In this document: positions 1 through 49,170 of the stretch, piece by piece
Layout: every line of letters starts with the position of its first letter
Numbering within the stretch: the first letter of the stretch is position 1
Source: Felis catus
Taxonomy: Eukaryota
DNA: 64,000 nt
NCBI RefSeq assembly: GCF_018350175.1
Contig: NC_058368.1
Coordinates: forward strand, 6,944,001-7,008,000
Direction: 5' to 3'
The notes under the pieces: model-generated
Database searches by the model: none
What the model saw: the letters and a program-made list of their open reading frames with translations, nothing else
What the model was told of the DNA's origin: nothing
Made by a program: the position numbers and the translations under genes

Positions 1-784
1 ATCCTTTCATTTATTCAATTTCCAACTCTAATGATTGAATGCTCTATTTTAGAGAAATTACGTCTATGCATTCCTCATTTTTCGAATAGTTTTTAGCATC
101 TTCTAGAAATACCTACATTCTTTCTACTGGATTTTCACTGGGTTACTGCATAATGAAATTAAACTCTGAATAGCATCCTTCCCACAAATTTCACACTAAG
201 CTGCTGCTTTTGGAACTAGACAATGGCACAGGAGAACAATATTAAACAGTCTAGAAAGGAAGAAGAAACACCTATTTTCAGTTGATATTTCATTGGAGGT
301 GACGTGCTAGTCGGATGGTATTTAAAATTATCCGGAATAAAAAAAGAATGAGTAGTTTTATGAACATTTCCTTTGTTCAATCTTAAGCACTTCCTCAAGG
401 AATTATGCAGAATGAGCTTTCTAAGTGACTTCAGCTCTGGGGCAGAGATGCAGACCTCGGCGTTTATCGAATGCTTTCAGAAAGCAAGGTAGAAAGTTGA
501 AGTTTTACTCTTGCTGTGGAATGTCCTTATGGATGTCTCCCTAGGCACACGTGCAAAAGTCACGATGGTATACACACAGGCGGAACTGCTGGGTTTCAGG
601 GTATGTGAATGTTCAACTACCAAGATATTACCAAATTGTGTAGTATTTATGAAAGTGCTCGTGTGTATTTATCATCCCACCAGCAGTATGGTAGAGCTTC
701 TATTCACTTCTGAGACTTGTGATTATGAATTCTTAATTTTAGCCACTTTAGTAGGTTTTGTGTGTTATCTTGTTACAGTCTTTC

Positions 785-950
785 TTTAAGTTTATTTTGA
801 GAGAGTGTGTGTGCACAAGTGAGGGAGGAGCAGAGAGAGAATCCCAAGCAGGCTCCATGCTGTCAGCACACAGCCCAATGCGGGGCTCGAACTCAGGAAC
901 CCCAAACCCTGTGAGATCATGACTTGAGTCATAAGCAATAATCAGACACC
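785..950 (-). mobile_element. Can-SINE (SINEC), truncated
   Basis: gagagagaatcccaagcaggctcc...gagatcatgacttgag consensus on minus strand. Confidence 0.8.
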
Positions 951-952
951 TA

Positions 953-1125
953 GGGCGCCTGGGTGGCTCAGTCAGTTAACCGTCCCACTCTTGATTTCGG
1001 CTCAGGTCATGATCTCTCGGTTCAAGGGATCAAGCCCCACATCAGGCTCTGAGCTGACAGTGTAGAACCTGCTGGAGATTCTCTCTCTCCCTTTCTCTCT
1101 GCCCCTCCCCCCACTGTCTCTCTTA
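953..1125 (+). mobile_element. Can-SINE (SINEC)
   Basis: gggcgcctgggtggctcagtc head, (CT)n tract. Confidence 0.85.
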
Positions 1126-1376
1126 AAGAAGTTGAGCAATTTTTCATGTTTATTCTCCTTTTGTGTTTCGTCTTCCTGTGAAACATCTGTTTGGATGGTT
1201 TTTCCATCGGTTGTTTGTCTTTTTCTGTTTGTTTCAGAGTATTAATCTGAATACTATCTTCTTTGCCAGCGACAGGTGTTGCAGATATCTTCTTCCAGTT
1301 TGTAGACTGTTTTTGTACTTCCTTGTTGGCATCGCTTGATGAACAGAAGTTCTTAACTATAATACAGGCAGATGTA

Positions 1377-1587
1377 GGGGCACCTGGGTGGCTCAGTCGG
1401 TTAAGCCTCCGACTTCAGACCAGGTCATGATCCCATCCTTTGTGGGTTTGAGCCCTACATCAGGCTCTGTGCTGACGGCACAGACCCTGGAGACTGCTTC
1501 AGATTCTGTGTCTCCCTCTCTCTCTGCCCCTCCTCCGCTCACATTCTGTCTCTCTTTCCCGAAAAAATAAACAAACGTTAAAAATTT
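1377..1587 (+). mobile_element. Can-SINE (SINEC_Fc-like)
   Basis: ggggcacctgggtggctcagtcggttaag head, CT tract, A-rich tail; TSD-like ataggcagat/acaggcagat. Confidence 0.9.
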
Positions 1588-1752
1588 ATAACATAGGCAG
1601 ATACATCAATCTTTCTGATTTGGGCTTTTTGTGTCTTAAGCACTTTTTCCGTACACAAAGATAAGATAGTCTTCTATTTCTAAATGTTTAAAGGTCTTAC
1701 CTTTATACATTTACATGTTTAATTATTCTGGATTTAAGTATCAAAAGGCCAC

Positions 1753-1776
1753 TTTTTTTTTAAATGTTTATTTATT

Positions 1777-1812
<36 letters not shown>

Positions 1813-1981
1813 TATGAGTGGGGGAGAAGCAGAGAGAGAGAGGGAGACACAGAATCCAAAGCAGGCTCCGGGCTCTGAACTGTCAGCACAGAGCCTGACG
1901 CGGGGCTCAAACTCACAAACCATTAGTTCATGACCTGAGCCAAAGTCAGACACTTAACCAACTGAGCCACCTAGACATCCC
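1753..1981 (-). mobile_element. Can-SINE (SINEC_Fc-like)
   Basis: Reverse consensus with (GA)n; degenerate TSD atcaaaaggccact/atcaaaaacccact. Confidence 0.9.
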
Positions 1982-3305
1982 ATCAAAAACCCACTCTTCA
2001 GGGCTGATTCACATGTGGAAAAGGTATCCGTAAATTCCTCCCAGGAAAAGTTGCCTGGTGTCTGCTCTATGCTTATGAGATCCTCCCCTTATACATATTT
2101 TGAGCTTGTCACTTGCAGGCCAGGAACAGTCTAACATGGGGACCCTTACAGTCATAGTTACTTCAGGGTGACCTGGTAGAGTAGATTAATTTCTCAGTTC
2201 TCGATCCCAACAGATCTGATAAAGGAAGTAAAATACTTCTGAACATGAAAGGCAATTATAAGGCTACGGGCTGAACAAAATCCCCCAAAAAGCAGAGTTT
2301 TAGACCTCCATATGATGTGACTGCATTTTTGATAACCGTTCAAAGGATCTTCTATGAAAACAACTCTAGTTACTCCTGTACAAACAAGTCAGAGGACACA
2401 AAAACAATTAATGATACTGAATTTAAAAACAACAATCACCACCACCACCACAGGCCAACCCTGCTATCAAATCCACATCTTAATGGCAGGAACTTGACCA
2501 AAAGAGGGAAGCAGGAAGCCAACACTGATACATGACTCTACTCCCAACACGACTGAGCACTTCAGAGACGGCAATACGGAAAAAAGTAAAGCACTTTGCA
2601 TTCTGAGCTAAATTAAAAATAACAGGACCACCCTAACTGGCGTGGGTCTCCAAGCTCTTAAAATAGTGAACATCCCATAAACCTGGTTTCCAAACAAGAG
2701 CAATTCCGCTCCTGATCTTGTTATGTTGGCATCTGAGACTATGACTTGGTCTTTGTGACTATAACGTCACGTGAGGAAGTTGTCTGTTGCCAGCATTAAC
2801 ACACGGATATAAACTTGGAAACCTCGATAACTTTATGGTTTCTTGAATCAAATGCCTACCAGGTTCTCTACTGGGGGAGCAGATCTTTCTGAAATCTGAC
2901 TTCCTTCTTGTCTTTGCAAATCCTTTCCCTTTGAAAGCCTTCTGTTTCGGAGTCCGCCTTTAGCCTGTGCAGTTGGGTGCTTCATCTGCCTATTGGTCAT
3001 CTTTCTCGCTTGGCACGTTGAGCCTTCAATGTGATGACGTCTTCTTTGTTCGCAGCTCACCCACACACCTCATGTTTTGACTGGGAGTATTTTCATTGGC
3101 ATTTTACACAGATTCCTCCTGGATACTGTCCACAGGCTAGCTCTTGGTTTCCTTCTAAAGCAGCAATTCACAGCTCCGTCCTCTCAGAAACATGTAAGAG
3201 GAAACAAAAGGACACTTGTAATGCCACCTCTTTGGTTTGTTGTGGCTCAACCTAAGCAAAACCTAGCAGTTGGAGGTAAGCCAGTCATTAGATTAGTGAC
3301 TTCTT

Positions 3306-3570
3306 GGGGCGCCTGGGTGGCTCAATCGGTTGGGCGTCTGACTTCAGCTCAGGTCATGATCTCACGGTTCGTGAGTTCGAGCCCCGCGTCGGGCTCTGCT
3401 GACAGCTCAGAGCCTGGAGCCTGCTTCGGATTCTGTGTCTCCCTCTCTCTCTCTGCCCCTCCCCTGCTCTCTCTCTCTCTCTCTGCCCCTCCCCTGCTCT
3501 CTCTCTCTCTCTCTGCCCTCCCCTGGTCTCTCTCTCTCTCTCTAAAAAAAAATAAACATTAAAAAATTAA
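3306..3570 (+). mobile_element. Can-SINE with triplicated ctctctctctgcccctccc unit
   Basis: Full head, internal tandem duplication of the CT region, AATAAA tail. Confidence 0.9.
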
Positions 3571-4954
3571 GTTAATGACTTCTTTTAGCAATTTTTATCA
3601 CAAGCCTTCCTTATCAGGAGAAAAAAAAACCCCAGTATTCTCAACTTTATAAACACCTGTAATAACAAAAGATCTTGGGCCTATAGGAGTCAACAGTTTT
3701 CTCTCATTTGCTCTTTACTTTGGACAGAGTTTACATGTCTTCTTGGGGTGACTGTGGCCAAAGTGGAATATCTGTGGCTCCCTTGGGACAGATCTTCACA
3801 TTCTTACCCCTAGAATCCGAGAATAGAGGGTTGATGCAAAGGCCCTGAGGTAGACACATTTTTTTTTAATGTGAAGAGATGGAAACCATCAGAGGCATCA
3901 TAAAATGAGTTGACTTTTAGGTCAAGCCAGGAAGATGCTCACCTTCAGTAACTTTCGGTGCATGTGGAGAACAGTCCTGGGTTCGGATAACACAACTTCA
4001 CATCCTCCTGTGAGGCTCCCAACACTAAATCTGAGCTCTGAAGACACAGGGAATGTTCCTTGACAATGGGCAGATGCCAAGCATTTCTACCTCCCTCCCA
4101 TTTCCATCTTCTAATCGTTGCGGCCAGAAGTGAAGTAGAGAAGCCAGGACACCAGCGGCGGAGAGGAACGTCTCAGGAGTCTCTACCGGACTCGAGCAGA
4201 CATACCCTTCTGACACCTCACATGTCTCAGAGGATGTGAGACAGTCGGTGGTGGTTAGTGAACCCAAGTTCACATTCACATAAAATCCGAGCATACAGCA
4301 GCACAGGCTTAGCGGAGGCGTGAGCACCTTCGTCTCAGCCACCCTCCCAAGGGCCGTGTTGATCCGGATCTTGCGTATCTGAGAAATGTCAAGAGGCTGG
4401 CGAGAAATGAATAGCCCGTCTGGTGCTTTCTCACCAAATGCTGAAAGCAAGGGAAGCATAAGTTCTTTGCAAGATGTCAAGCAGAGGTCTTCAAAACAGT
4501 TCAGGTAAAAGGAAGAGATGAGTCTTTTCCGGTTTTCTGTCACGGTCACACAGAAACCTGCCGACCTAAGGCCCATGCTCAGTGCTCGACTCCAGAGTCC
4601 AACTCTCTGAAAACGTCCGCCAAACGTCCTGCTACCAGGTTTTCCTGGCCTTACTTATTCTGGGAGAACTGAAAGCACCCGGAGTGGATGAAAAGCCTCT
4701 TGTCAGTCTGCATCACCAAGGAGCCCAGGCGCCTTGGACAGAAGGTGCGTACGTTATGGAATAGGGTTCCTCGGAGTAGACCCCACAGAAGGGGTAGGTC
4801 AATGATTTCCAGGGCTCGGCCACAAATCTCCTCAGGCATCCAACTCTCAAGACTCCCAGATAAGTCGGAAGGGATCTGGACCGGATGCTGCCCTTTTGTT
4901 GGAATCAGGAATACCACACCCGTGTCACCCATTCTCTCCACAGGACAGACGTCT

Positions 4955-6399
4955 CTGAAAACAGCAGAGTAGACAACTCCAAGCCTTCATCCCTTCATAA
5001 AAGCAGTGAACAAGCTGGCAAGAATTGTCACGATGAAGTTTTTCAGAACTCTACAATCTAATAAAAGAAACTTTCAGCAACCAGAATAAAGCTCACTGGA
5101 AAAAAAAAAAAAAGCCAGCTGAATTTTGGTAAGAGAGCATTTTGACTTACCTTGTTACCATTGCCAACACAGCTACAGACTTGAAGACAGAAGTCCATTT
5201 TCCTGGTGCAGGTTACTGGGATCGGAGGGACCAGAACCAATCTTATCTCACCTCAAAGAACCGTGGATCCACGTTTTGACCTGAGTAGCTCCCTGAAGCT
5301 CCCGTAAGCTCCTTGAAGGATCTGCTCAAGGACTTGCCTTTGTTTCACACGCCTCAGCTCCAAGGCAGTTTCCTGGGTGACGTTTGCAAATGCATAAGCG
5401 GCTGCCATCTGTGGCAAAGGGTAACAATTAGGGCAAGCAACAGAAAAACCAAAATACTGGGAAGAAAGAGGCTGGAGAAGGGCATATTTCAGGGAATAAG
5501 GGCTTTGAGAAGCTCCCATTTAATCCAGAGAACTAGAAGACTCCCTGCATGCCTGGGCTGGATACATGCTCAGAAAAGACCCGAGAAGAGTCAAAGATCT
5601 TCTCATTGGCTGACCTTCAAGCTCCATGCAAGCAGGAAGTAAACGGCCCGGCCAAGTATCGAGGAGTGCCACAACACAGAGCCCGTCTGAAAAGACTGGA
5701 GAGAGTTTTTAGGGGGCTTTTTTTTTTCTTTTCTTTTTTTACTCCAGGGATTAAAAGAACTCTCTGCCTGACCACTAGCTGACTAGTAAACTAATGGAAC
5801 AGAAACGTAAGTGACCACACATGACAAAGAATATACTTTGAAAATTAGTTCAGAAAAGCCATTTAAAAAACAAGCAACAACAGCTACAACAAACAGCAAC
5901 AACACGTCATGGAGAGAGAGGGAAAAAGTGATTTCCAAAGTTGCCACATGAGAATATTCAAAATATTAAGTTTTCAATGAAAAGATTACAAAGTCACATG
6001 TGAAAGAAAGAACCATTCATAGGAAGAAAAAAGTTAATAGTTCTTGAGGAAGCCCAAATATCAGACTTAACAGACAAAACTTTACTTTTTTTAATATTTG
6101 TTTTTGAGAGAGACAGAATGCGAGTAGGGGAGGGGCAGAGGAGAGGGAGACACAGATTTGGAAGCAGGCTCCAGGCTCTGAGCCATCAGCACAGAACCCA
6201 ATGTGGGGCTCGAACTCATGAACCTGTGAGATCATGACCTGAGCCAAAGTCGGATGCTTAGACTGAGCCTCCCAGGCACCCGAGAGCCACTTTTTAGAAA
6301 ACATCTATATACTCATTGCCAGTTTTAATATTAACATCTTGCCATCTCTGTTTCATCTATTTGTTTTTTACTGAAGTGTTTGAAAGTAAACGGGGTGTA
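4955..6399 (+). mobile_element. Ancient L1M (L1M4/L1MC-like) 5' region insertion, containing a later SINE
   Basis: Motifs aaaagcagtgaacaagctggcaagaattgtc...tttttcagaactct and gctgaccttcaagctccatgcaagcaggaagt resemble old L1M 5' UTRs; flanked by ACGTCT (4949-4954) and ACATCT (6400-6405). Confidence 0.65.
6080..6281 (-). mobile_element. Can-SINE
   Basis: Reverse SINEC consensus. Confidence 0.9.
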
Positions 6400-6990
6400 A
6401 CATCTGTCAACGTTTTGGTTATGTCCCACTTCGTCTTGGCTAAAGTTTCTCATGTTTCCTGGCTTTCTCAGGGAAATCTCCTGACCTTCTTTCCTCCCTT
6501 TCCCTCACATAAAATGTCCAACACTAGTTCCTTATTCATCGTTTAGTCCCATTCTCTCACACTTCTTTCCAATAATACCATGGGAGGCTCACATGTAATT
6601 CTTTTCTCAGAATTGCCTCCTTCTTCTGAGAACAATTTCCCATCATCCTATCCAAATTGTTCTCTCAGGATCTCCAGTTATGACACAACGTCACACACAC
6701 ATCTCTCCTCCTCCTATCACAGTTGCTGTGTCTAGATCTTGTGGCCCAGAGAGGGTTTTCCCACTGGTCTTGGACCTAGGGCCCAGAGAGTTGAGGTGGT
6801 TTCTCTGCAGGTGGCCAACTTGGTCAGCTGCAAAGCTCAGGAGCTATCAGAGGTCAAGTTTCTCTCATGTGTTGAAAGAATGCTTGCAACGAGAGAGAAG
6901 AATGAGGTTGACACTCAGAAAAAGTGGAGCAAACAATCCTTTATTGTTGGGAAACTTTTTTTTCTAACCTCACTTGAATTGGGATTCTGT

Positions 6991-7122
6991 GGGCACCTGG
7001 GGGTCTCAGTGGGTTAAGCATCTGGCTCTTGGTTTCGGCTCAGGTTACGATCTCACGGTTCATGAGTTTGAGCCCCACATCAGGCTCTGCATTGACAGCA
7101 TGGAGCCTGCTTGTGATTCTTG

Positions 7123-7162
<40 letters not shown>

Positions 7163-7252
7163 CCCCCACTTGTGAGTGCACTCTCTCTCCCTCTCTCAAA
7201 ATAAATAAACTTTTTAAATAAGTAAGTAAGTAAGTAAATAAATAAATAAATA
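6991..7252 (+). mobile_element. Can-SINE with (TAAG)n/(TAAA)n tail
   Basis: SINEC head, CT tract, microsatellite tail. Confidence 0.9.
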
Positions 7253-7846
7253 AGGATTCTAGCGCCTGCAGCCAAAAGAGCATGTAAGTGAGTGTGGTCT
7301 GGCCTAGGGGATATCGATAGGGAGAATTGGGTAAAACCTTTAGTCTACCCCCAAATAAAAGTTATAAAGACCACTCTAAACAATCCATCCAACCTCAAAT
7401 TCAAAAGACTTGAAGAGAAGCTATAGTTCTGTGTATGTTTTCAAGGTCAAATATTAATACATAAATCTATAAAACTTAAAAAAAAAAAAGAAAAGAAAAG
7501 GCGGCAAGGAGCTCACCAATGTATGTAGGACATAGGATTTCAGATTGTTACTTTTGTACATTACACGTTCATTTAAAAATCGAACAAAATTTTATTTTGT
7601 ACCTACTTTTTGTAGAAAGCGCCTCAGAAACTATAGTGTGTCTGCTATTGAACCGGAAAATTTAGTTTGTGGTTCTGTATTTTATTCTAAACGTGATCAA
7701 ATACACCTCCACACACACACAAGAGACAGGAAGGTGTATACATTTTATGACTTGTTAAACATACCAACAAACAATAAAAAACAACTGACAAGCTAGAACA
7801 ACATTAGTAAACTGAAAAATTCAGTTAATAATTCTTCTTAAAAATA

Positions 7847-8070
7847 GGGGCGCCTGGGTGGCGCAGTCGGTTAAGCATCCGACTTTAGCCAGGTCACGGT
7901 CTCGTGGTCCATGAGTTCGAGCCCCGCGTCGGGCTCTGGGCTGATGGCTCGGAGCCTGGAGCCTGTTTCTGATTCTGTGTCTCCCTCTCTCTCTGCTCCT
8001 CGCCCGTTCATGCTCTGTCTCTCTCTGTCCCAAAAATAAATAAATGTTGAAAAAAAATTAAAAAAAAAAA
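7847..8070 (+). mobile_element. Young felid SINEC_Fc
   Basis: ggggcgcctgggtggcgcagtcggttaag...ctgatggctcggagcctggagcctgtttc...cccaaaaataaataaa. Confidence 0.92.
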
Positions 8071-8496
8071 TCTATGTAGCCACAGAAATTTGTGAGTCTT
8101 TTTCCTAGACCATACACTGCTGAGCCAAAGTGATTACTCACTTTTGTATCCTATGGTGAAACGTATACTTCTCAAGGGTACAGATATAATCATATAAATC
8201 AACACAAATCAAAACGTGTTGAGCACATGTGCCGATACCGTCTGTCACCTACTCCAGCAGGTCTTTCCTGATCTCCCGGATAAGGATCGTGCCCTTAATG
8301 TTCTCATAGTCTCAGCTGGTCTTTCGTTGGCACATATAAAAATAATTCTTAAATTATCTCCCAATGACTAGTTCAGTATTGTCTCCTGGAAAATACATAA
8401 TCTCCCAAAAGACACGGGCTTTGTTCCCCTCTTCAGGAATGGGCCCCAGTATCAAGCAGGCACATAATGAAATGCTTAGTAAAAGATTAATGAATA

Positions 8497-8725
8497 GGGG
8501 CGCCTGGGTGGTCCCGTTGGTTGAGCATCTGACTTCGGCTCAGATTATGATCTCACGGTTCGTGGGTTCAAGCCCCGCGTTGGGCTCTGTGCCGACAGCT
8601 CGGAGCCTGCAGCCTGCTTCCGATTCTGTGTCTCCCTCTCTCTCTGCCCCTCCCCTGCTCATATTCTCTCTCTCTCTCTCACTCTCTTTCTCTTAAAATA
8701 AGCATTTTTTAAATGAAAAAAAAGA
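8497..8725 (+). mobile_element. Can-SINE
   Basis: SINEC consensus; TSD-like aaaagattaatgaata/aaaagattaaggaata. Confidence 0.9.
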
Positions 8726-9127
8726 TTAAGGAATAAATATGTCACACCACAGAGAATTTTATAAAGGAAGGACTCCATAATTTCTGTCGGTTGTCTTATT
8801 TCTGGCTTGTGCAGAGAATGAGAATGGAGAAAGGAGCGCTTACTACTGAGGGTGAGCGAATGTGAGGCTCTGGCATTTGCGGGCTTGTTTCTCTCCCAGA
8901 GTCCCGTCAACTGTCAAGTGCAGCAAGGTGTGCTTTGTCCTACATACAATCATAGGAGTTTCTCAGTTCGGTGTCCTGTGTTTCCAAATCTTTTTAACTA
9001 CATGGTGATGGATGCTAACTAGACTTATTGGGGTGATCGTTTCACAACATGTACAAATACTGAATCATTATGTTGTCCCCCTGAAACTATATAATATTCT
9101 AAGTCAATTTATGTCAATAACATAACA

Positions 9128-9545
9128 TTTCTTTCTTTCTTTCCTTCCTTCCTTCCTTCCTTCCTTCCTTCCTTCCTTCCTTCCTTCCTTCCTTTTCAGA
9201 GAGGGAGCAAGTGGGCCAGAAGAAGAGAGAATCTTCAGCAGGCTCCACACTCACCCTGGGATCATGATCTGAGCTGAAATCAAGAGTCAGATGCTCAACC
9301 TACTGAGCCACCCAGGTGTCCCTGATGACTCTATTTTTAACATTTATTCATTTTTGAGAAACAGAGACAGACAGAACGTGAGTGGGGGAGAGGCAGAGAG
9401 AGAGGGAGACACAGAATCCGCAGCAGGCTCCAGGCTCCGAGCTGTCAGCACTGAGCCCAATGTGGGGCTCGGACCCACGGAGTGCGAGATTATGACCTGA
9501 GCCGACGTCGGAAGCTTACCCGACTGAGCCACCCTGGCGCCCCCC
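9128..9545 (-). mobile_element. Two tandem minus-strand Can-SINEs, the first with a (TTCC)n tail
   Basis: (TTCC)n 9130-9195; SINE bodies ~9195-9322 and ~9333-9545. Confidence 0.85.
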
Positions 9546-11735
9546 AATCACTCTATTTGAAACTGTGATATCTCATTTCCTCTTTCCTGCTTGATTTTTT
9601 TTTCTCTATGGCACTTGTCTCCATCTGTCTGAATATACACATTGTAACACAATAGTGTAAATAGTGTACCGTTTACTGTCTTTCCCCCACTAGAATGTAA
9701 ACTTCGAGAGGATAGGGATTTTTGTCTGTTTTATTCCCCTGTATCTCTAGCATTCTGCCATGTAGTAGGTGCCCAATGAATGTATGCTCCATGAATGACT
9801 GAATGAACGAATGCCCTGAGCACTGCTTGAGGAAACCCGTCAGCTGGGCAGCAGACTACGTTGGATTAATTGTCAATCTCAAATGGATCCTAAATATCAA
9901 ATCATTCTGTTACAAAAGATGCTGCTACTGTGAACGATCATTTTCTTCAAACTCCATTCATGTTATTAAAATTACCCCTATTAACACTGATTCAGTGGGG
10001 TCAGCTTGCTGCTCCCTTTTCCCCCGTATTTTCCATCTCGGTGTCCAAATATTTTTGAGCCTTTACTATACGGTATGCTACGCACTGGATACAAAGTGAT
10101 AGGCCTAGAGTGACAAAGTCCTTACCTTTATGAAGCTTACAGTTTTCTGAAATTCACCGTGTGAAAGTCACCAGACCACTACCTCTCCCCAGTTTCAAGT
10201 ATCTTCTCTCAGATCAACTAAAATTAAGTAGAATTCTAGCAAATTATTTCAATTCAATCTTGTCCAATGTCACGCACATAAACCAGCTTTCAAAGACCAC
10301 CGAAACCTAGCTTGCAGCACCACAGATATCTAAAAACTAGTCTGAATAGATAGCACTGGGATCGCGTCTATACAATATGAAAGCTGAGTGCAAATTAGCA
10401 ACATGAAACCGCTATCTGACGAAGGTTCTTCATGTAATTTTATGCTTCAGCTTATATAAATCCCAGCGCTAAAACCTTTAAAAGCATTTGTATCAATTAT
10501 TTTACAGAAATATTTTGATGTCATTGTGGTTCATTATAATGGTTATTGTCAGTTTTCCAAAAAAAAAAAAAAAAAAGAGTTTATTTCAATAATTCCGGGC
10601 ATATATGAAACTGTAGCCAGAGTAATTTTTCTAATGGCTAAAAAGGTTTTAGTCTTTTGTCAGCAAGGACTGTAGTTAAAATATTTCAACCGCAGAATCT
10701 TCTTATCCCGTCGGAGTACAGCCAAGTACCTGCAGAATAGTTCGGAGGTAGAAACAGGACACTGCCAGTCAGCAGAAAATTTTGACTCTATCATAGGACA
10801 GAGGCCTAATTGCTCCCCTATTTCATTTGACAACCAGAATGGCTGTTTTGAGAACACTTTTGTGGGTTTCTTTTTAAAGTGTTTCCAAGTTTAATTTTAA
10901 CAGGCACAACAGAGTGCCAGTCCCCTATCTGATTGTCCCACAAAATTTGACCTGCTTGACTTCACCAGCAGTCGCACTGGAAATCTAAGGACATGACAGG
11001 GTAACAGCGAAGCAAAATCAGTTTAGTTACAGGATAAATTAACAACTGCAGACCGTCAGCTCAAGGCAAGTCAGCAAAATTGCACCAAAGCTTGTTCAGA
11101 ATCCACAGGGCAAAATGGAAAATAATCCCACGTGCCCATGTTTCTGAGTTACTTTGCAGGGGCAAGATTACTGTGGGAACATGCATATTTTGACGGGGAA
11201 CTCACCCTAATAGTGTAACAGTCAAAGTTTGTGACAAATAGGGATTACTTCCAGAATTTGCAGGGACATCTCTGGCAGCGGTAGCAGAAGTAGGGGACCA
11301 GGACAGTGTTCATAAGCTTTTTGATCCCAGGACCCCCTTACCTCTTAAAAATCACTGAACTTTCATTTATGTGGATTTTCATCTATCAATATTTACCAGA
11401 CATTAAAATGAAGACTTTCTAGAAATATTCATTCACTTATATAAAAATAAACATAATAATAATAGAAACCTCATACACGGTCACATAAATATTTTTATGA
11501 CAAGTGACTGTGTTTTCCAAAATAAATTCTTTTTCACTGCATTTCTTTTTTGCTGCACCATTTGGTGAGAAGTGTGGCATTGTCTTACCTTTTTGTGACA
11601 TCCGTAAGCTCTAGCTCGGTCGAAAACAACAACTGGACAGTCATCTGCCTCTGCATTGGATCTATTGCCATATGCATTTGGTTGAAGTATATGAAGAAAA
11701 CCGTCTCACACAGGCATGCTAGGAAAGGGAGCAGT

Positions 11736-11968
11736 ATTTTTTAAATTTTTTTTTCATTTTTTTTCAACGTTTTTATTTATTTTTGGGACAGAGAGAGACA
11801 GAGCATGAACGGGGGAGGGGCAGAGAGAGAGGGAGACACAGAATCAGAAACAGGCTCCAGGCTCTGAGCCATCAGCCCAGAGCCCGACGCGAGGCTCGAA
11901 CTCACGGACCGCGAGATCGTGACCTGGCTGAAGTCGGACGCTTAACCGACTGCGCCACCCAGGCGCCC
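11736..11968 (-). mobile_element. Young felid SINEC_Fc
   Basis: Near-consensus; TSD gggagcagtatttt on both sides. Confidence 0.93.
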
Positions 11969-12140
11969 GGGGAGCAGTATTTTAATAACTTTTTCAGGTA
12001 ATTGTGGCTAATCTTATTTGATACCACACCAACACTCCACAGTAACAGATTTTTTTTTTTAAAGAGTAGTTGCAACGTGAAATCTAAATAGTATCAGTGA
12101 CATTTTCATACTGGTACATTAAATTCTATTGGCCCGTGTA

Positions 12141-33698: not shown

Positions 33699-33949
33699 CG
33701 AGTTGCAAACTATTACTGCCCGGAAGGGGCCTTCACATACCCGGAGCCAGGTCACCGTGACCGAGTTCCCTTATACTGACACGAATTCAGGACTCCACCC
33801 CCGTCTTTCTTCCCTATTAATGCCATCCCTTAGCACCTTTGGAAACAAACAGGCCCACTGCACTCAACAGGAATTTATCCCTCCCGTTGTTGCGGAGACA
33901 GCCGACTGAGTGCACCTTTCCCTCTTTCGTTCCTGCTCCAGCTCATGGG

Positions 33950-34960
33950 GCTCTCAGCTTCACCCACCGGCCCAGGGACCCGGGTTCGTCTCTGCGGGAA
34001 GGAGGGGCCCCCAGGGCCACGCAGGCACAGCCTGACGCGGGGCCTCCCACGCACTCGCGGGACGGCGGCGGTCCTTCCAGGGGCCGGAGGCGGGAGCCGC
34101 GCACAGCGCGTCAAGGGCCTAGGCGGCGCGCACGCCCGCGGCCACCGGCCCCCTCGGCTCTCCCAGCGCGTCCCCTCCCGGCCGCCGCGGGAAGGGGCGG
34201 GAGGAGGAGGAGCCGGAGGCGGCCGCCGCGCCCCCACCGCGCGCGCCGAGCCCTTTAAAACCCGCGGGGCCCCGCGCGCTCCGCCGGCCGCCGCGCTGCC
34301 CGCGCTCCCGCGTCCCCGCGCGCTCTGCTGGCCGCCGCGGCGCTGCGGCCGGGCTCGGCAGGCTTGCGCTCTCGGCGGCGGGTCCCGCTCGGCCGGCGCG
34401 CCCTCCATGCGGCCGCCCAGCATGTCCGGGCACTGTCTGCTCGCGCCCATCCCCGAGTCCTCCTCCGATTGCCTCCCGCCCAAGGACATCAAGCTGGCCG
34501 TGCTGGGCGCCGGCCGCGTGGGCAAGAGCGGTGAGTGCCCGGGGGGCCGCGCCGGGGGTGGGGGATAACCGGGCTTCGGGGAAGAGCCGGAGCTCTGGAG
34601 CGGAGGGGGGCGGGGTGGAGCGCGGGGAGGAACCTGGAAGTTTCGGCGCGGGCCCCGGCTCTCCCCCGCCAGCCCGCTTTTCCCGCTGCTTCCCGGGGGC
34701 GTCTACTCCAGGGCTCCCTCCCGCCCGGGTTGGCACCTGCTGGAGAATGGCGGGGGGCTGGTGCGGCAGGCCGGGCACCTGCAGTCACACCCCGACGCGC
34801 GGGAGACCGCGACGGCCGCACCCTGGGTGTTGCAGAGCCGGAGGACTGGGGCAGTACCCGCTGCCCTGCGGCCCATCGCCCCCTCCTTTTCCTCGAGAGC
34901 GTCCGGGGTGACTGTTTGGTTCCAGTCGTTTAGCGGACTTCCCCATGGTTCCCTTTCAGC
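33950..34960 (+). promoter_or_regulatory. RASL11A CpG-island promoter with TATA-like box
   Basis: Very GC/CpG rich; GC box GGGGCGGG ~34194-34201; TTTAAAA at 34254-34260, ~150 nt upstream of the ATG. Confidence 0.85.
34407..34530 (+). CDS. RASL11A: Ras-like protein family member 11A, exon 1
   Basis: MRPPSMSGHCLLAPIPESSSDCLPPKDIKLAVLGAGRVGKS (P-loop GxxxxGKS) +G|gtgagt. Confidence 0.96.
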
Positions 34961-35016
34961 AATGATCGTGCGCTTCCTCACCAAGAGATTCATCGGCGAC
35001 TATGAACCGAATACAG
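34960..35016 (+). CDS. RASL11A: RASL11A exon 2
   Basis: ccctttcag|(A)MIVRFLTKRFIGDYEPNT+G|gttaga; switch I region. Confidence 0.96.
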
Positions 35017-35208: not shown

Positions 35209-36156
35209 GTAAGGACTGCCAGAAGCAAACGGCTCACCACCTTGCACACACGGGGGCGGAGGAGGGCTCCCAGGCTTGAGCAAGATGTCCAAACACACCC
35301 GTTTTGCCTTTAGATATAGAAGCGGGCTGTCCCGAGGTGGGGGCTTAGAAACCCTCCTGGGGGCTCGGGCAGGGTGGGTGGATGGTTAGGGAGGCAGCAT
35401 CCTGGTGTCCCTCACCTCCAAAGGAGAGAGATACGTGACCTTTCTTTACAACCCTAGTGGGGCATCACTGCTTGTAGGGATGGGTCCTCCCCAGCTTCCA
35501 GAACTGGGCCAGGAAACCGTTAACAAAATTATTGGGGTGGGATTCTGGGGAGGGGCTCCTCCCCTAGCAGGGACTGCTGACGTGCTTCTAACTGTTCCCT
35601 CAAGTTAGTAATTGCAACCAGATAAGCCCTTGGCAAGCAGTCAGGAATTTAACTTGATTAACAAGTTATTAATTGCGCTCCCTTCTAGGGAGGCAAGGTC
35701 TAGTGGAAGAACAGAAAGAAGGAATTTGTTTCTGTAACATTCTCAACAAGGGCATGCTAAAAATATTTTTATGGGCTTGGGAAAAGATATTTATCTTGGC
35801 TTGTTTTCAAAGTTTTGTTTATTCCCAGTTCCCTAAAGATTGCGCCATTCTAATTTGAAAGTTCTCGTTGAAGTCATCCTTCAGTCAGCCAGGGCTCACC
35901 ACAGAATACCTGCCAAGCAGGGGGCCGAAAGATCGAGCATTAGTGGCAGCCAATAAAATATCCCAGGCAGGGAGCTGGCCGGAGAATTTGTTCTCCCCGC
36001 AGCCAGAGCCGCCTTCCGCAGAAGCTAGGTGGAGTCTGAAAACTGTACTTACGATTTCTTTTTCGAACTTGTTTTCCCGAGGGTCCCTTTGATCTTATTT
36101 TGAGTCCGCTCCCACTGCGGGCTTCCTTGATCCAGACGCGTGTTGATCTTCCTCAG

Positions 36157-36624
36157 GTCCAAGACAACCTCCTCCAGGTAGCTGATCCTCTGTCCAGGTG
36201 CGTGCAGTGGGCAGACGGCTTTCTGCTGGTCTACTCCATCACGGACTACGACAGCTACCAGGCCATCCGCCCCCTCTACCAGCACATCCGGAAGGTCCAC
36301 CCTGACGCCAGGGTCCCCGTCGTCATCGTGGGCAACAAGGGGGACCTTCTGCATGCCCGGCAGGTGCAAACGCATGATGGCGTTCAACTAGCCAACGAGC
36401 TGGGCAGCCTGTTCCTTGAAATTTCCACCAGTGAAAACTACGAGGACGTCTGCGATGTGTTTCAGCACCTCTGCAAAGAGGTGAGCAAGTCACACGGCGT
36501 CAGCGGGGAGAGGAGGAGAGCCTCCATCATTCCCCGGCCGCGCTCTCCCAACATGCAAGACCTCAAGAGACGCTTCAAGCAGGCTCTGTCTTCCAAAGTC
36601 AAAGCCCCCTCTGCGCTGGGATGA
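36157..36624 (+). CDS. RASL11A: RASL11A exon 4
   Basis: VQDNLLQVADPLSRCVQWADGFLLVYSITD...VGNKGDL...EISTSENY...KVKAPSALG-TGA; exons sum to 124+57+80+468=729 nt = 242 aa + stop. Confidence 0.95.
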   Translation, partial: VQDNLLQVADPLSRCVQWADGFLLVYSITDYDSYQAIRPLYQHIRKVHPDARVPVVIVGNKGDLLHARQVQTHDGVQLANELGSLFLEISTSENYEDVCDVFQHLCKEVSKSHGVSGERRRASIIPRPRSPNMQDLKRRFKQALSSKVKAPSALG

Positions 36625-46778: not shown

Positions 46779-47911
46779 AAGGGCATTCTTATTTATGAAC
46801 TTGAGGAACTTAGGACGGAGGAAATGGAGTAAGTGGTAATTCGTGGGCTTTGCTTCTCTGGCTGCAGATAGGAAAGGAGTTGGGTGTATCGGCCAAAGCT
46901 GGACTTCCTGCCCAGGCCAGTTCTGTGGCCCTGGTCCCCTCTGGGCTGCCCTGGGTGGGGAAAGCATCTGAAAACCAAAAAAAGTTGGTCTTCTTGAGCG
47001 TTCAAGCTCCTGAATGATGAAAGAGACACTAAACAGTGGCTTATGCAAGTCCTTGTGGGGCCTGGGTGAGTCACTTCCCCTCGCTGGTCTCCAAGCTCCT
47101 CTTTTATGAAACAAGAGGTTTGGGTTTCGTTAGCGGTCCACACATGCCGGGATGCAGTGGACTCGCCTGGGGGTGCTTGCTTAAAATGCAGTCTCCCGGG
47201 CCTACTCCCAGAGACTCTGATACAGAAATTCCACGTGGAAATTGCCCAACAAAAATACCTAAAACCTACTGAGTCCTTGCCGTGTGCCAAACACTACTTA
47301 AAAGAGTTTTTCGTGGATTAACTAATTTTATCCTGCAACGATCCCGTGACATATACTATTGTTAGTACATTAGGGCTAATTAGTATTATCAGTACATTAT
47401 TAATAGTATGAGCGATGATTATCCCCTGTTACAGATGTGCAAATGGAGGCACACGGCTGCGGAGAGGCTGTCCCAAGTCACGCCCCCGTTGGGAGAGGCA
47501 GAGCTGTGACGCAGGCCTAGTCGACCTTGGCTGTGGGTCTCAGCTAGTGCTTTCCCAAGAGGCTGTCCTCAGCCACGCCCCACCCATTCTGCTGGCTGCT
47601 TGAATACACAGTCACCCTGAATGGATGACTTTGGTAAAAAAAAGATAAGATAGACAGACACCTCACAGAGTACTGGGCAAACTCGACAGAAGCAACCAGA
47701 AAGGGACAAGCAATGTGCTCTGGGAACAGAGGGGGTGGTCAGTGAGGGGGTTCCAGTCTTTCTGACAGGAGGGGTGCAAGTAGGGATCAGAGAGAAGGAG
47801 GCATTTAGAAGGAGTTGGGTGTATGGGCCCAAATCAGTTGTTTGGACTCCCTCTGAGTAGAACCTTCAAGAAATGGTTGGTCTTCTTCCTCTATCTTGTC
47901 TATATCTAGAT

Positions 47912-47915
47912 AGGA

Positions 47916-47999
<84 letters not shown>

Positions 48000-48049
48000 G
48001 AAAGAAAAAGGGAGGGAGGGAGAGAAGAAACAAAGAAAGGGGGAGGGAA

Positions 48050-48086
<37 letters not shown>

Positions 48087-48289
48087 AAAAGAAAGAAAAA
48101 GGGAGGGATGGAGGGAAGGAAGGAAGAAAGAAAGAAAGAGAAAGAAAAGGGGAAGGATGGAGGGAAGGAAGGAAGAAAGAAAGAGAAAGAAAGAGAGAAA
48201 GAAAGAAAGAAAGAAAGAGAAAGAAAAAGGGAAGGAAGAGGGAGGGAAGAAGAAAAAAAGAAAGAGAAAGAAAAAGGGAGGGAGGGAGA

Positions 48290-48338
<49 letters not shown>

Positions 48339-48437
48339 AAAAGAAAGAGAAAGAAAGAAAAAGGGAAGGATGGAGGGAGGGAAGGAAGAAAGAAAGAAAA
48401 AGAAAGGGAGGGAGGGAGGAAAGAAGGCAAGAAAGAA
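47912..48437. repeat. Compound (GAAA)n/(GGAG)n polypurine tract
   Basis: About 525 bp with almost no pyrimidines on the + strand. Confidence 0.98.
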
Positions 48438-48439
48438 AC

Positions 48440-49170
48440 CCAAATGAACAAACAAAAAGCAGAATTGGACCCATAAATACAGAGAACGGACTGACGGCTG
48501 CCAGCGAGGAGGAGGGGCGGGCAAAACGGGTGAGGGGGAGTGGGAGATACAGTCATGGACTGAACAAGTCACAGGGAATACAGTCAGTGGCCCTGGAATA
48601 GAGCTGTCTGGTGACAGGTGGCGGCTGCACTGTGGCGAGCACAGCAGGACATACAGGGTTGTGGAATCACTATGTTGTACACCTGAAACTGTCACGCTGT
48701 GCGTCAACTGAGGAGGTTTGGGGGTGATGGGTTTTCGCGGGGTCCGGAGCCAACGGCCAAGAACGAATCCTTGAAGACGTCTTTGGTGCATAAAGGTGAT
48801 TTGATTAAAGCGCGGGGACAGGACCCGTGGGCAGGAAGAGCTGCCCGGGACCAAGAGCAGAGACTGGTTATATACTATGGAGCTGGGGTAGGTCAAGTCC
48901 AGGGGAAGTTTCCGGTGAGATTTTCATATGCTAAAGAAGACTCACTCGGGGTACTGGAGGCCTAGCTATTGCCCAGCGAAGGTGGTTTTTCCCTCCAGCA
49001 AAGCATTAACATTAAGGCAGTAGGAAGTTTCTGGAGGAATATTTTACTCTGCCAGCCCAAGTTATTTGTCAACGGGCAGCAGGTTATAAGGAAATTTAAT
49101 TTTATCTGCCATTTCCTTCTGCCTTTGTTTCCCATGTCATCAACTATACTTAAATAAAAAATAAATAGAT
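48440..49170 (+). mobile_element. Carnivore L1 3' end interrupted by a solo LTR
   Basis: caaatgaacaaacaaaaagcagaa...gaatcactatgttgtacacctgaaact...gtcaac | tatacttaaataaaaa. Confidence 0.8.
48709..49139 (-). mobile_element. Solo ERV LTR (~431 bp)
   Basis: TG...CA termini with 5-bp TSD TCAAC (48704-48708 and 49140-49144); TATA-like TATATAA on the minus strand near 48870. Confidence 0.8.

Follow-up and report, generated by a model that had tools for sequence, protein, structure and literature searches.

In the present study, we analysed a stretch of 64,000 nucleotides from the Felis catus genome (contig NC_058368.1, positions 6,944,001 to 7,008,000), which is called the window here and is part of contig C1 in our labels. 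We found that its minus strand, at about 4576-3730, very probably holds a dead, intron-free copy of an RFPL4A-type gene, and comparison with related sequences shows that this copy belongs to a three-copy unit and has decayed neutrally. The first-pass annotation of the window had taken 3943-6882 for an exon of a lost gene, a relic of about 1.5 kb split by an ancient L1 insertion. The idea of a dead gene holds, in that a 209-amino-acid (aa) open reading frame (ORF) descends at about 4576-4139 from coding sequence; the exon of a lost multi-exon gene does not, as the locus is an intronless RFPL4A-like pseudogene. The genome searched in six frames at the protein level comprised 2.43 Gb, and the paralogous loci are cited by their contigs (C17, C22, C16 and C39). 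The coding relic is spread over three frames:

4139-4576, minus strand: first frame of the RFPL pseudogene, with the ATG at 4576, the RING relic, an RDM-like stretch, PRY and the start of SPRY.
3925-4137, minus strand: second frame of the RFPL pseudogene, with the SPRY core and two in-frame stops; it contains AAG GTG AGC.
3726-3923, minus strand: third frame of the RFPL pseudogene, with the C-terminal SPRY strands, the tail and two stops.

The assignment was made with a local RFPL profile of 287 positions, built from the 95 of 120 RFPL proteins that measure 270-330 aa. In six frames of the whole 64 kb, this profile gave only three matches, adjacent and colinear and each in a different frame, namely 4393-4136 (profile positions 53-144), 4242-3925 (111-221) and 3923-3834 (223-251). 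When the three frame pieces were joined into a read-through, in which X marks the stops and both joints, a score of 67.4 bits was obtained over profile positions 51-251, and the best of 1000 shuffles reached 5.7. The first-frame piece covers positions 51-147 of this alignment, and the RDM region of the profile (51-95) aligns within it. In blastp, the SPRY-frame read-through matched 105 of the 120 RFPL proteins (best E 2.9e-9), and the 209-aa ORF matched 43 of them, with its residues 35-200 against RFPL residues 14-173 and RFPL4A of Suricata (P0008) as the best match (E 7e-5). The B30.2 exon of this genome's own RFPL4A returned window 4134-3928 and 3908-3849 in tblastn (E 5.8e-4), and the same exon is matched at the DNA level by window 4279-3833 (E 3e-9). 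A PRY/SPRY (B30.2) relic is thus found at the C-terminal side of the window copy.

The ancestral frame of the copy shifts twice, near 4138 and 3924, and is broken by at least four stops. The 209-aa ORF (4028-4654, stop to stop; 4025-4576 from its first ATG with the stop counted, a frame of 183 codons) keeps to the ancestral frame over 146 codons, as far as about 4139, and then runs about 38 codons outside it. The true frame resumes, after two stops, in a 54-aa ORF at 3922-4086 and then passes into the third frame to about 3730. From the ATG at 4576 to the start of PRY at about 4283 there are 98 codons; zf-B_box gave no Pfam match in the window pieces searched, and neither a B-box nor a coiled coil was found between RING and B30.2. 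The RING itself is not recognisable in the window copy, where no RING pattern was found and profile positions 1-50 remained unaligned. Few cysteines are left in the first 60 residues, the zinc-binding residues are gone, and the alignment with C17 has a 9-residue gap within the RING. This loss of the RING is a decayed state, as expected of a pseudogene.

The family was identified through the paralogous copies. The six-frame genome search gave a first paralog on C17 (E 5e-10, 36% identity, four stops), and this paralog, used as query, gave a second one on C22 together with weak off-frame matches to two intact B30.2 exons. Two frames of the window match C17 equally well, which was the first sign that the similarity is one of DNA rather than of a protein maintained by selection. 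Among the matches of the C17 SPRY piece in PDB, the best 60 of 74 were all TRIM, butyrophilin, RFPL or pyrin proteins, with TRIM11 at the top (E 7.9e-8). For the C22 copy, the best intact relative in the genome was C39:2880310-2880642 (E 5.9e-18, 40% identity), which outranked every other B30.2 exon. With 'ret finger protein-like 4A' of Prionailurus bengalensis (P0001), this exon shares 96% identity, and the protein matches obtained with it are overwhelmingly RFPL4A, RFPL3 and RFPL1, most of them with Pfam RDM (PF11002), PRY, SPRY and RING. The intact RFPL4A of this genome occupies C39:2878230-2880766. Its RING and RDM exon sits about 1.6 kb before the B30.2 exon, the two being separated by a phase-1 intron (KFQ/GT...AG/VDVTLD), and the junction KFQ/VDVTLD reads through in the P. 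bengalensis protein.

The similarity among the copies extends well beyond the coding part. The RFPL-like unit is at least 2.5 kb long and exists in three copies, on C1 (the window), C17 and C22. Window 4942-3647 is colinear with C22 (E 6e-80), and window 4547-3911 matches C17 (E 1e-47). The flanks of the unit in the window are as follows:

8073-8495, minus strand: upstream block 1, non-coding flank, matched by blastn to C17 161155759-161156115 (E 1e-11 and 4e-5).
7840-8076, no strand assigned: carnivore-type short interspersed nuclear element (SINE) in the unit, with many matches of 70-87% identity in the C16, C17 and C22 loci.
7482-7839, minus strand: upstream block 2, into which the sequence broken off near 4950 truly continues.
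4577-4942, minus strand: 5' flank or leader, homologous in all three copies; it holds most of a 111-aa ORF.
3300-3570, no strand assigned: carnivore-type SINE in the 3' flank, with matches of 72-86% identity and C22 homology on both sides.
2802-3192, minus strand: 3' flank common with C22 (blastn of 3192-2802 to C22 62801293-62800933, E 3.7e-19).

Upstream block 1 also matches C22 62808413-62808688 (E 2e-6). Upstream block 2 is matched at 7665-7482 (E 1.4e-10) and 7839-7716 (E 0.009) by the upstream piece of C17 and at 7660-7505 (E 3.6e-10) by that of C22. The C17 and C22 sequences are similar to one another over the 400 bp before the start (E 4e-27, z 19), and on the 3' side the alignment of the window with C22 fades near 2820. 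The genome-wide DNA search is blind to copies of about 60% identity and missed the core copies on C17 and C22; within this limit it returned the window core as single-copy at high identity, and it gave only self-matches with 8077-8471 and 2700-3299. The C17 copy has an insertion of its own of about 445 bp (C17:161157245-161157690), which is absent from the window and C22 copies, and its homology to the other two copies ends within the C-terminal part of SPRY.

Between the 5' flank and upstream block 2, the unit is interrupted in the window by one large block of foreign DNA:

4955-7481, plus strand: composite of later insertions, about 2.5 kb, of at least five pieces.

Both paralogous copies cease to align at about 4942 and align again from 7482. 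Because the upstream parts of C17 and C22 match 7482-7839, the interruption spans about 4955-7481 and not 4955-6399 as had been claimed; its boundaries are accurate to about 20-50 bp. The composite begins with a plus-strand piece at 4955-5113, which ends in an AATAAA and a run of 14 A at 5100-5113. An old interspersed repeat at 5386-6079 has at least 43 other matches of 64-77% identity (210 first-look candidates, of which 40 were scored). SINEs lie at 6084-6311 and 6990-7246, and an A-rich run is present at 7479-7499. The stretches 6300-6989 and 7247-7341 are the two parts of a two-copy element that is split in the window by a SINE. Only one other copy of 6312-6983 was detectable in the genome, on C16 at 75% identity, and the C16 sequence (C16:63913060-63913834) is colinear with both parts and runs unbroken through 6399/6400, so the piece at 6400-6680 is inserted material. 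This pair is about 775 bp long with 73-75% identity, and it may be a transcript retrocopy, a long terminal repeat or a rare repeat.

These boundaries bear directly on the proposal that 3943-6882 is a relic exon of about 1.5 kb, split by a single L1 at 4955-6399 with a 6-bp duplication and ended by a splice donor at 3943. The features quoted for it are all present in the sequence. The minus-strand ORFs at 4654-4986 (111 aa) and 4028-4654 (209 aa) exist, and the minus-strand translation of about 6680-6400 was given correctly; its 94 codons include four stops. On the plus strand, the hexamer ACGTCT stands at 4949-4954 and ACATCT at 6400-6405. The motif AAG/GTGAGC (3945-3937) is likewise in place, and arithmetic on the sequence shows that excision of 4955-6399 with one hexamer does join both frames. 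The homology to the paralogous copies also breaks close to 4955, so that foreign DNA indeed starts beside this position, and an L1 origin is plausible for part of the insert, judging from a longer copy of the old repeat on C47, which is followed 1.2 kb downstream by a relic of L1 ORF1 with the same orientation (locus L043, about 2955-3098, minus strand; Pfam Tnp_22_dsRBD, the C-terminal domain of L1 ORF1, E 8e-5). However, one L1 element at 4955-6399 with defined ends and a target duplication was not found, and the six frames of 4955-7481 gave no Pfam family, L1 domains included. The upper junction at 6399/6400 is refuted, being crossed by the colinear C16 paralog, and what was taken as the upstream half of the exon lies inside inserted DNA. 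Window 6400-6900 compared with the upstream parts of C17 and C22 gives z values of 0 or below, whereas these parts match each other strongly and find their true continuation at 7482-7839. The RFPL homology runs across the supposed donor, which lies inside the SPRY-coding stretch and reads K-V-S there; AAG GTG AGC ATC TTC CTG (KVSIFL) aligns with HRVGVFLD of RFPL4A, and C22 shares the GTGAGC. The coding region is intronless and begins at about 4576, so the 111-aa ORF upstream of it is non-coding; 4577-4942 gave no RFPL profile, Pfam or PDB match, and the 111-aa ORF (4654-4986) is a chance ORF. Taken together, the split exon can hardly be correct.

The features quoted in favour of the exon do not exceed chance expectation. 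In the 64-kb window, 11 stop-to-stop ORFs reach 209 aa or more and 72 reach 111 aa or more. Random sequence has 3 stops in 64 codons, to which four stops in 94 codons come close; two frames join in phase by chance in one case out of three; and a 6-mer with one mismatch would easily be found if both boundaries are freely chosen. It is for these reasons that the quoted features are unremarkable. Two other readings of the 111-aa ORF, both made by eye, were also rejected. For a retroviral protease with a -1 frameshift into the 209-aa ORF, there was no Pfam or PDB support; the 209-aa ORF is in the -1 frame relative to the 111-aa ORF, and the idea fails because the overlap of only 4 nt leaves no room for a slippery site. 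For a TRIM RING and B-box, the RFPL profile sets the coding start at about 4576 with nothing upstream, and the supposed C-x-x-C has non-cysteine codons that are common to all three copies.

The decay of the copies was assessed in a three-way alignment. The Jukes-Cantor branches are 0.33 for the window, 0.22 for C17 and 0.21 for C22, and on the window branch the coding N-terminal part (0.35) has changed as much as the upstream flank (0.33). The mismatch rates at codon positions 1, 2 and 3 do not differ in any of the three pairs (p = 0.14, 0.98 and 0.36). Because coding part and flank diverge equally and codon periodicity is lacking, the copies have been drifting neutrally ever since their separation. 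At the neutral rates usually cited for mammals, this divergence would correspond to an age of the order of a hundred million years. The statement in the first-pass annotation that the inactivation is ancient is borne out by about 0.2-0.33 substitutions per site on each copy's branch, and the age so obtained fits its guess of an inactivation older than the carnivores.

Continued use of the window copy, as a short protein (RDM-like stretch, PRY and SPRY start, with no working RING) or as a regulatory RNA, has also been considered. Counted from the ATG, 146 codons of the ancestral frame are free of stops and the ORF goes on to 4025, and RFPL loci are known to have antisense or non-coding partners, as the title of a paper on the long non-coding RNA RFPL3S indicates. 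Nevertheless, the window branch is the longest of the three, its coding N-terminal part changes no more slowly than its flank, third codon positions show no excess, and the final 38 or so codons of the ORF lie outside the ancestral frame. The part before PRY is not recognisably RFPL by itself, and ORFs of such length are common in the window. We therefore hold a continuing function to be very unlikely, and nothing in the sequence comparisons indicates a present function of the window copy.

The origin of the three copies is a separate matter. The window, C17 and C22 copies are all contiguous where RFPL4A has its intron, and it is this shared absence that makes a processed copy the most likely founder. 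The course of events was very probably as follows. A founder copy of RFPL4A type, without the intron, came to exist three times with more than 1 kb of common flank. After the split, the three copies decayed neutrally, the window copy acquiring two frameshifts and at least four stops and losing its RING ligands. Later, about 2.5 kb of retroposed DNA (SINEs, the old repeat and the two-copy element) landed about 370 bp upstream of the start codon, and the 3' flank received a further SINE. This history, together with chance, accounts for the long ORFs, the apparent rejoining in frame and the GTGAGC that resembles a donor.

Several observations weigh against the reading as a decayed, processed RFPL4A-type copy, in its identity as well as in its origin. 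The frames of the read-through were picked after the profile matches had been seen. No Pfam family was matched at E of 10 or less by any window piece, RDM, PRY and SPRY included; only the C22 piece touches Pfam SPRY (E 3e-5), without reaching the curated cut-off. Three window pieces were also compared with the PDB sequences, and neither a TRIM nor an RFPL protein was matched. The RING and RDM part of the window alone scores 1.6 bits against the profile, and the shuffle maximum is 6.8. The reading of this part as RING and RDM would thus lean on the C17 copy, one Smith-Waterman test, the read-through and the DNA homology between the copies. The N-terminal part of C17 scores 13.5 bits with the RFPL profile, above all 2000 shuffles (maximum 6.7), and in the Smith-Waterman comparison with RFPL4A exon 1 the window reaches z 4.4 (1 of 2000 shuffles attains it) and C17 z 10.4. 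On the side of the origin, no run of A was found where the homology of the window with C22 ends (about 2820), target duplications not having been searched for. Upstream of the ATG, at least 1.1 kb is common to the copies, a considerable length for a leader. No similarity of the flanks to the RFPL4A locus was found, only the B30.2 exon being similar at the DNA level. Finally, an intact single-exon ORF of 274 aa with RING and B30.2 is present at C13:100936171-100936992 (L014), so that intron-free members of this kind can be real genes. This C13 sequence has its RING at the N-terminus and its B30.2 at the C-terminus, has no intron, and is probably another RFPL-type gene.

Some further searches gave little. 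Pfam PF11002 (RDM) was not matched in the window or C17 pieces, and matches to Pfam DUF4729 (plus strand) and DUF2968 were far under their cut-offs and were taken as chance. Word-based searches of the protein collection ('longer' length class) with the 209-aa ORF and the C17 SPRY piece returned nothing, and Rfam gave no match in window 1-12000.

The points on the origin are also those that speak for another history, in which the three copies are DNA-level duplicates of an ancestrally intronless RFPL-type gene that carried its own promoter and flanks and died soon after. Such duplication would account for the long common upstream part, for the roughly 0.9 kb shared downstream of the coding part and for the lack of a visible poly(A) tail at the end of the window-C22 homology, and the C13 ORF shows that a single-exon gene of this kind exists. 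On the other side, the copies are uninterrupted at the very point where the nearest intact relative, RFPL4A, has its intron, each of the three lies on a chromosome-scale contig of its own, and no period of purifying selection is detectable after the split. The tail argument is also softened by age, as marks such as poly(A) and target duplications may be erased after roughly 0.2-0.3 substitutions per site. C22 carries an A-rich run slightly beyond the end of its homology with the window. We consider duplication at the DNA level possible, yet less probable than a processed founder. A further variant, in which an RFPL retrocopy was caught in or transduced by an ancient low-copy mobile unit, which in early placental mammals then reached three chromosomes or more, is suggested because more than 1 kb upstream and nearly 1 kb downstream are shared and all equally diverged. 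It seems unlikely; if true, the three copies would represent an uncatalogued gene-carrying repeat family and not three ordinary pseudogenes. A dead RFPL4A-type copy, most likely of processed origin, is retained as the best account of the locus.

The biological weight of this locus is little, since dispersed dead RFPL4A copies are already known and the window copy adds one more. Its use lies in caution. In mammalian DNA of moderate GC content, ORFs of 100-200 codons, in-frame rejoining and perfect-looking donors arise by chance, and former coding sequence can hold a long open frame that is partly outside the ancestral frame. In the present study, paralogous copies from the same genome were sufficient to locate the true boundaries.

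Elsewhere in the window, a Ras-family coding exon was observed at 36040-36621 on the plus strand (Pfam Ras, E 2.7e-19), which presumably resembles a small GTPase of the RASL11 type. A GC-rich region before this exon, with a CpG-rich stretch at about 33800-35000, yields several ORFs of 220-275 aa on both strands. The RFPL locus is situated upstream of this Ras-family gene (34-37 kb). At 47808-48923 there is a long purine/pyrimidine (GAAA/GGAA)-like low-complexity tract with ORFs of 180-372 aa in several frames and on both strands; these are the longest in the window and clearly non-coding.

Among known systems, the intact RFPL4A of this genome is the closest, as both the paralogous copies and the window read-through find their best intact match in it. 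The two are alike in the order RING, RDM and PRY/SPRY, with no B-box or coiled coil between. The same order of RING, RDM and a B30.2 built of PRY and SPRY is described for RFPL3 (PMC7575581). The window copy is unlike RFPL4A in that it is without the intron between RDM and PRY, has two frame changes and at least four stops, and has lost the zinc ligands; the protein identity is about 30-33% and the flanks are unrelated. A parallel is offered by the human pseudogenes of the RFPL4AP series, which have official gene symbols and are likewise dead RFPL4A-derived copies dispersed over other chromosomes; PMC6906185 names RFPL4AP3 among the genes in the vicinity of GBA3 and PPARGC1A, and RFPL4AP symbols are also listed in two other papers. 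TRIM11, TRIM7 and TRIM21 as well as BTN3A1 and BTN2A1 share the PRY/SPRY fold family with the window copy and are the top PDB sequence matches of the C17 copy. However, in TRIM proteins a B-box and a coiled coil stand between RING and PRY, and butyrophilins have immunoglobulin domains and a membrane span, whereas in the window copy the distance from the RING relic to PRY is only about 45 residues, and these align with the RDM region of the RFPL proteins.

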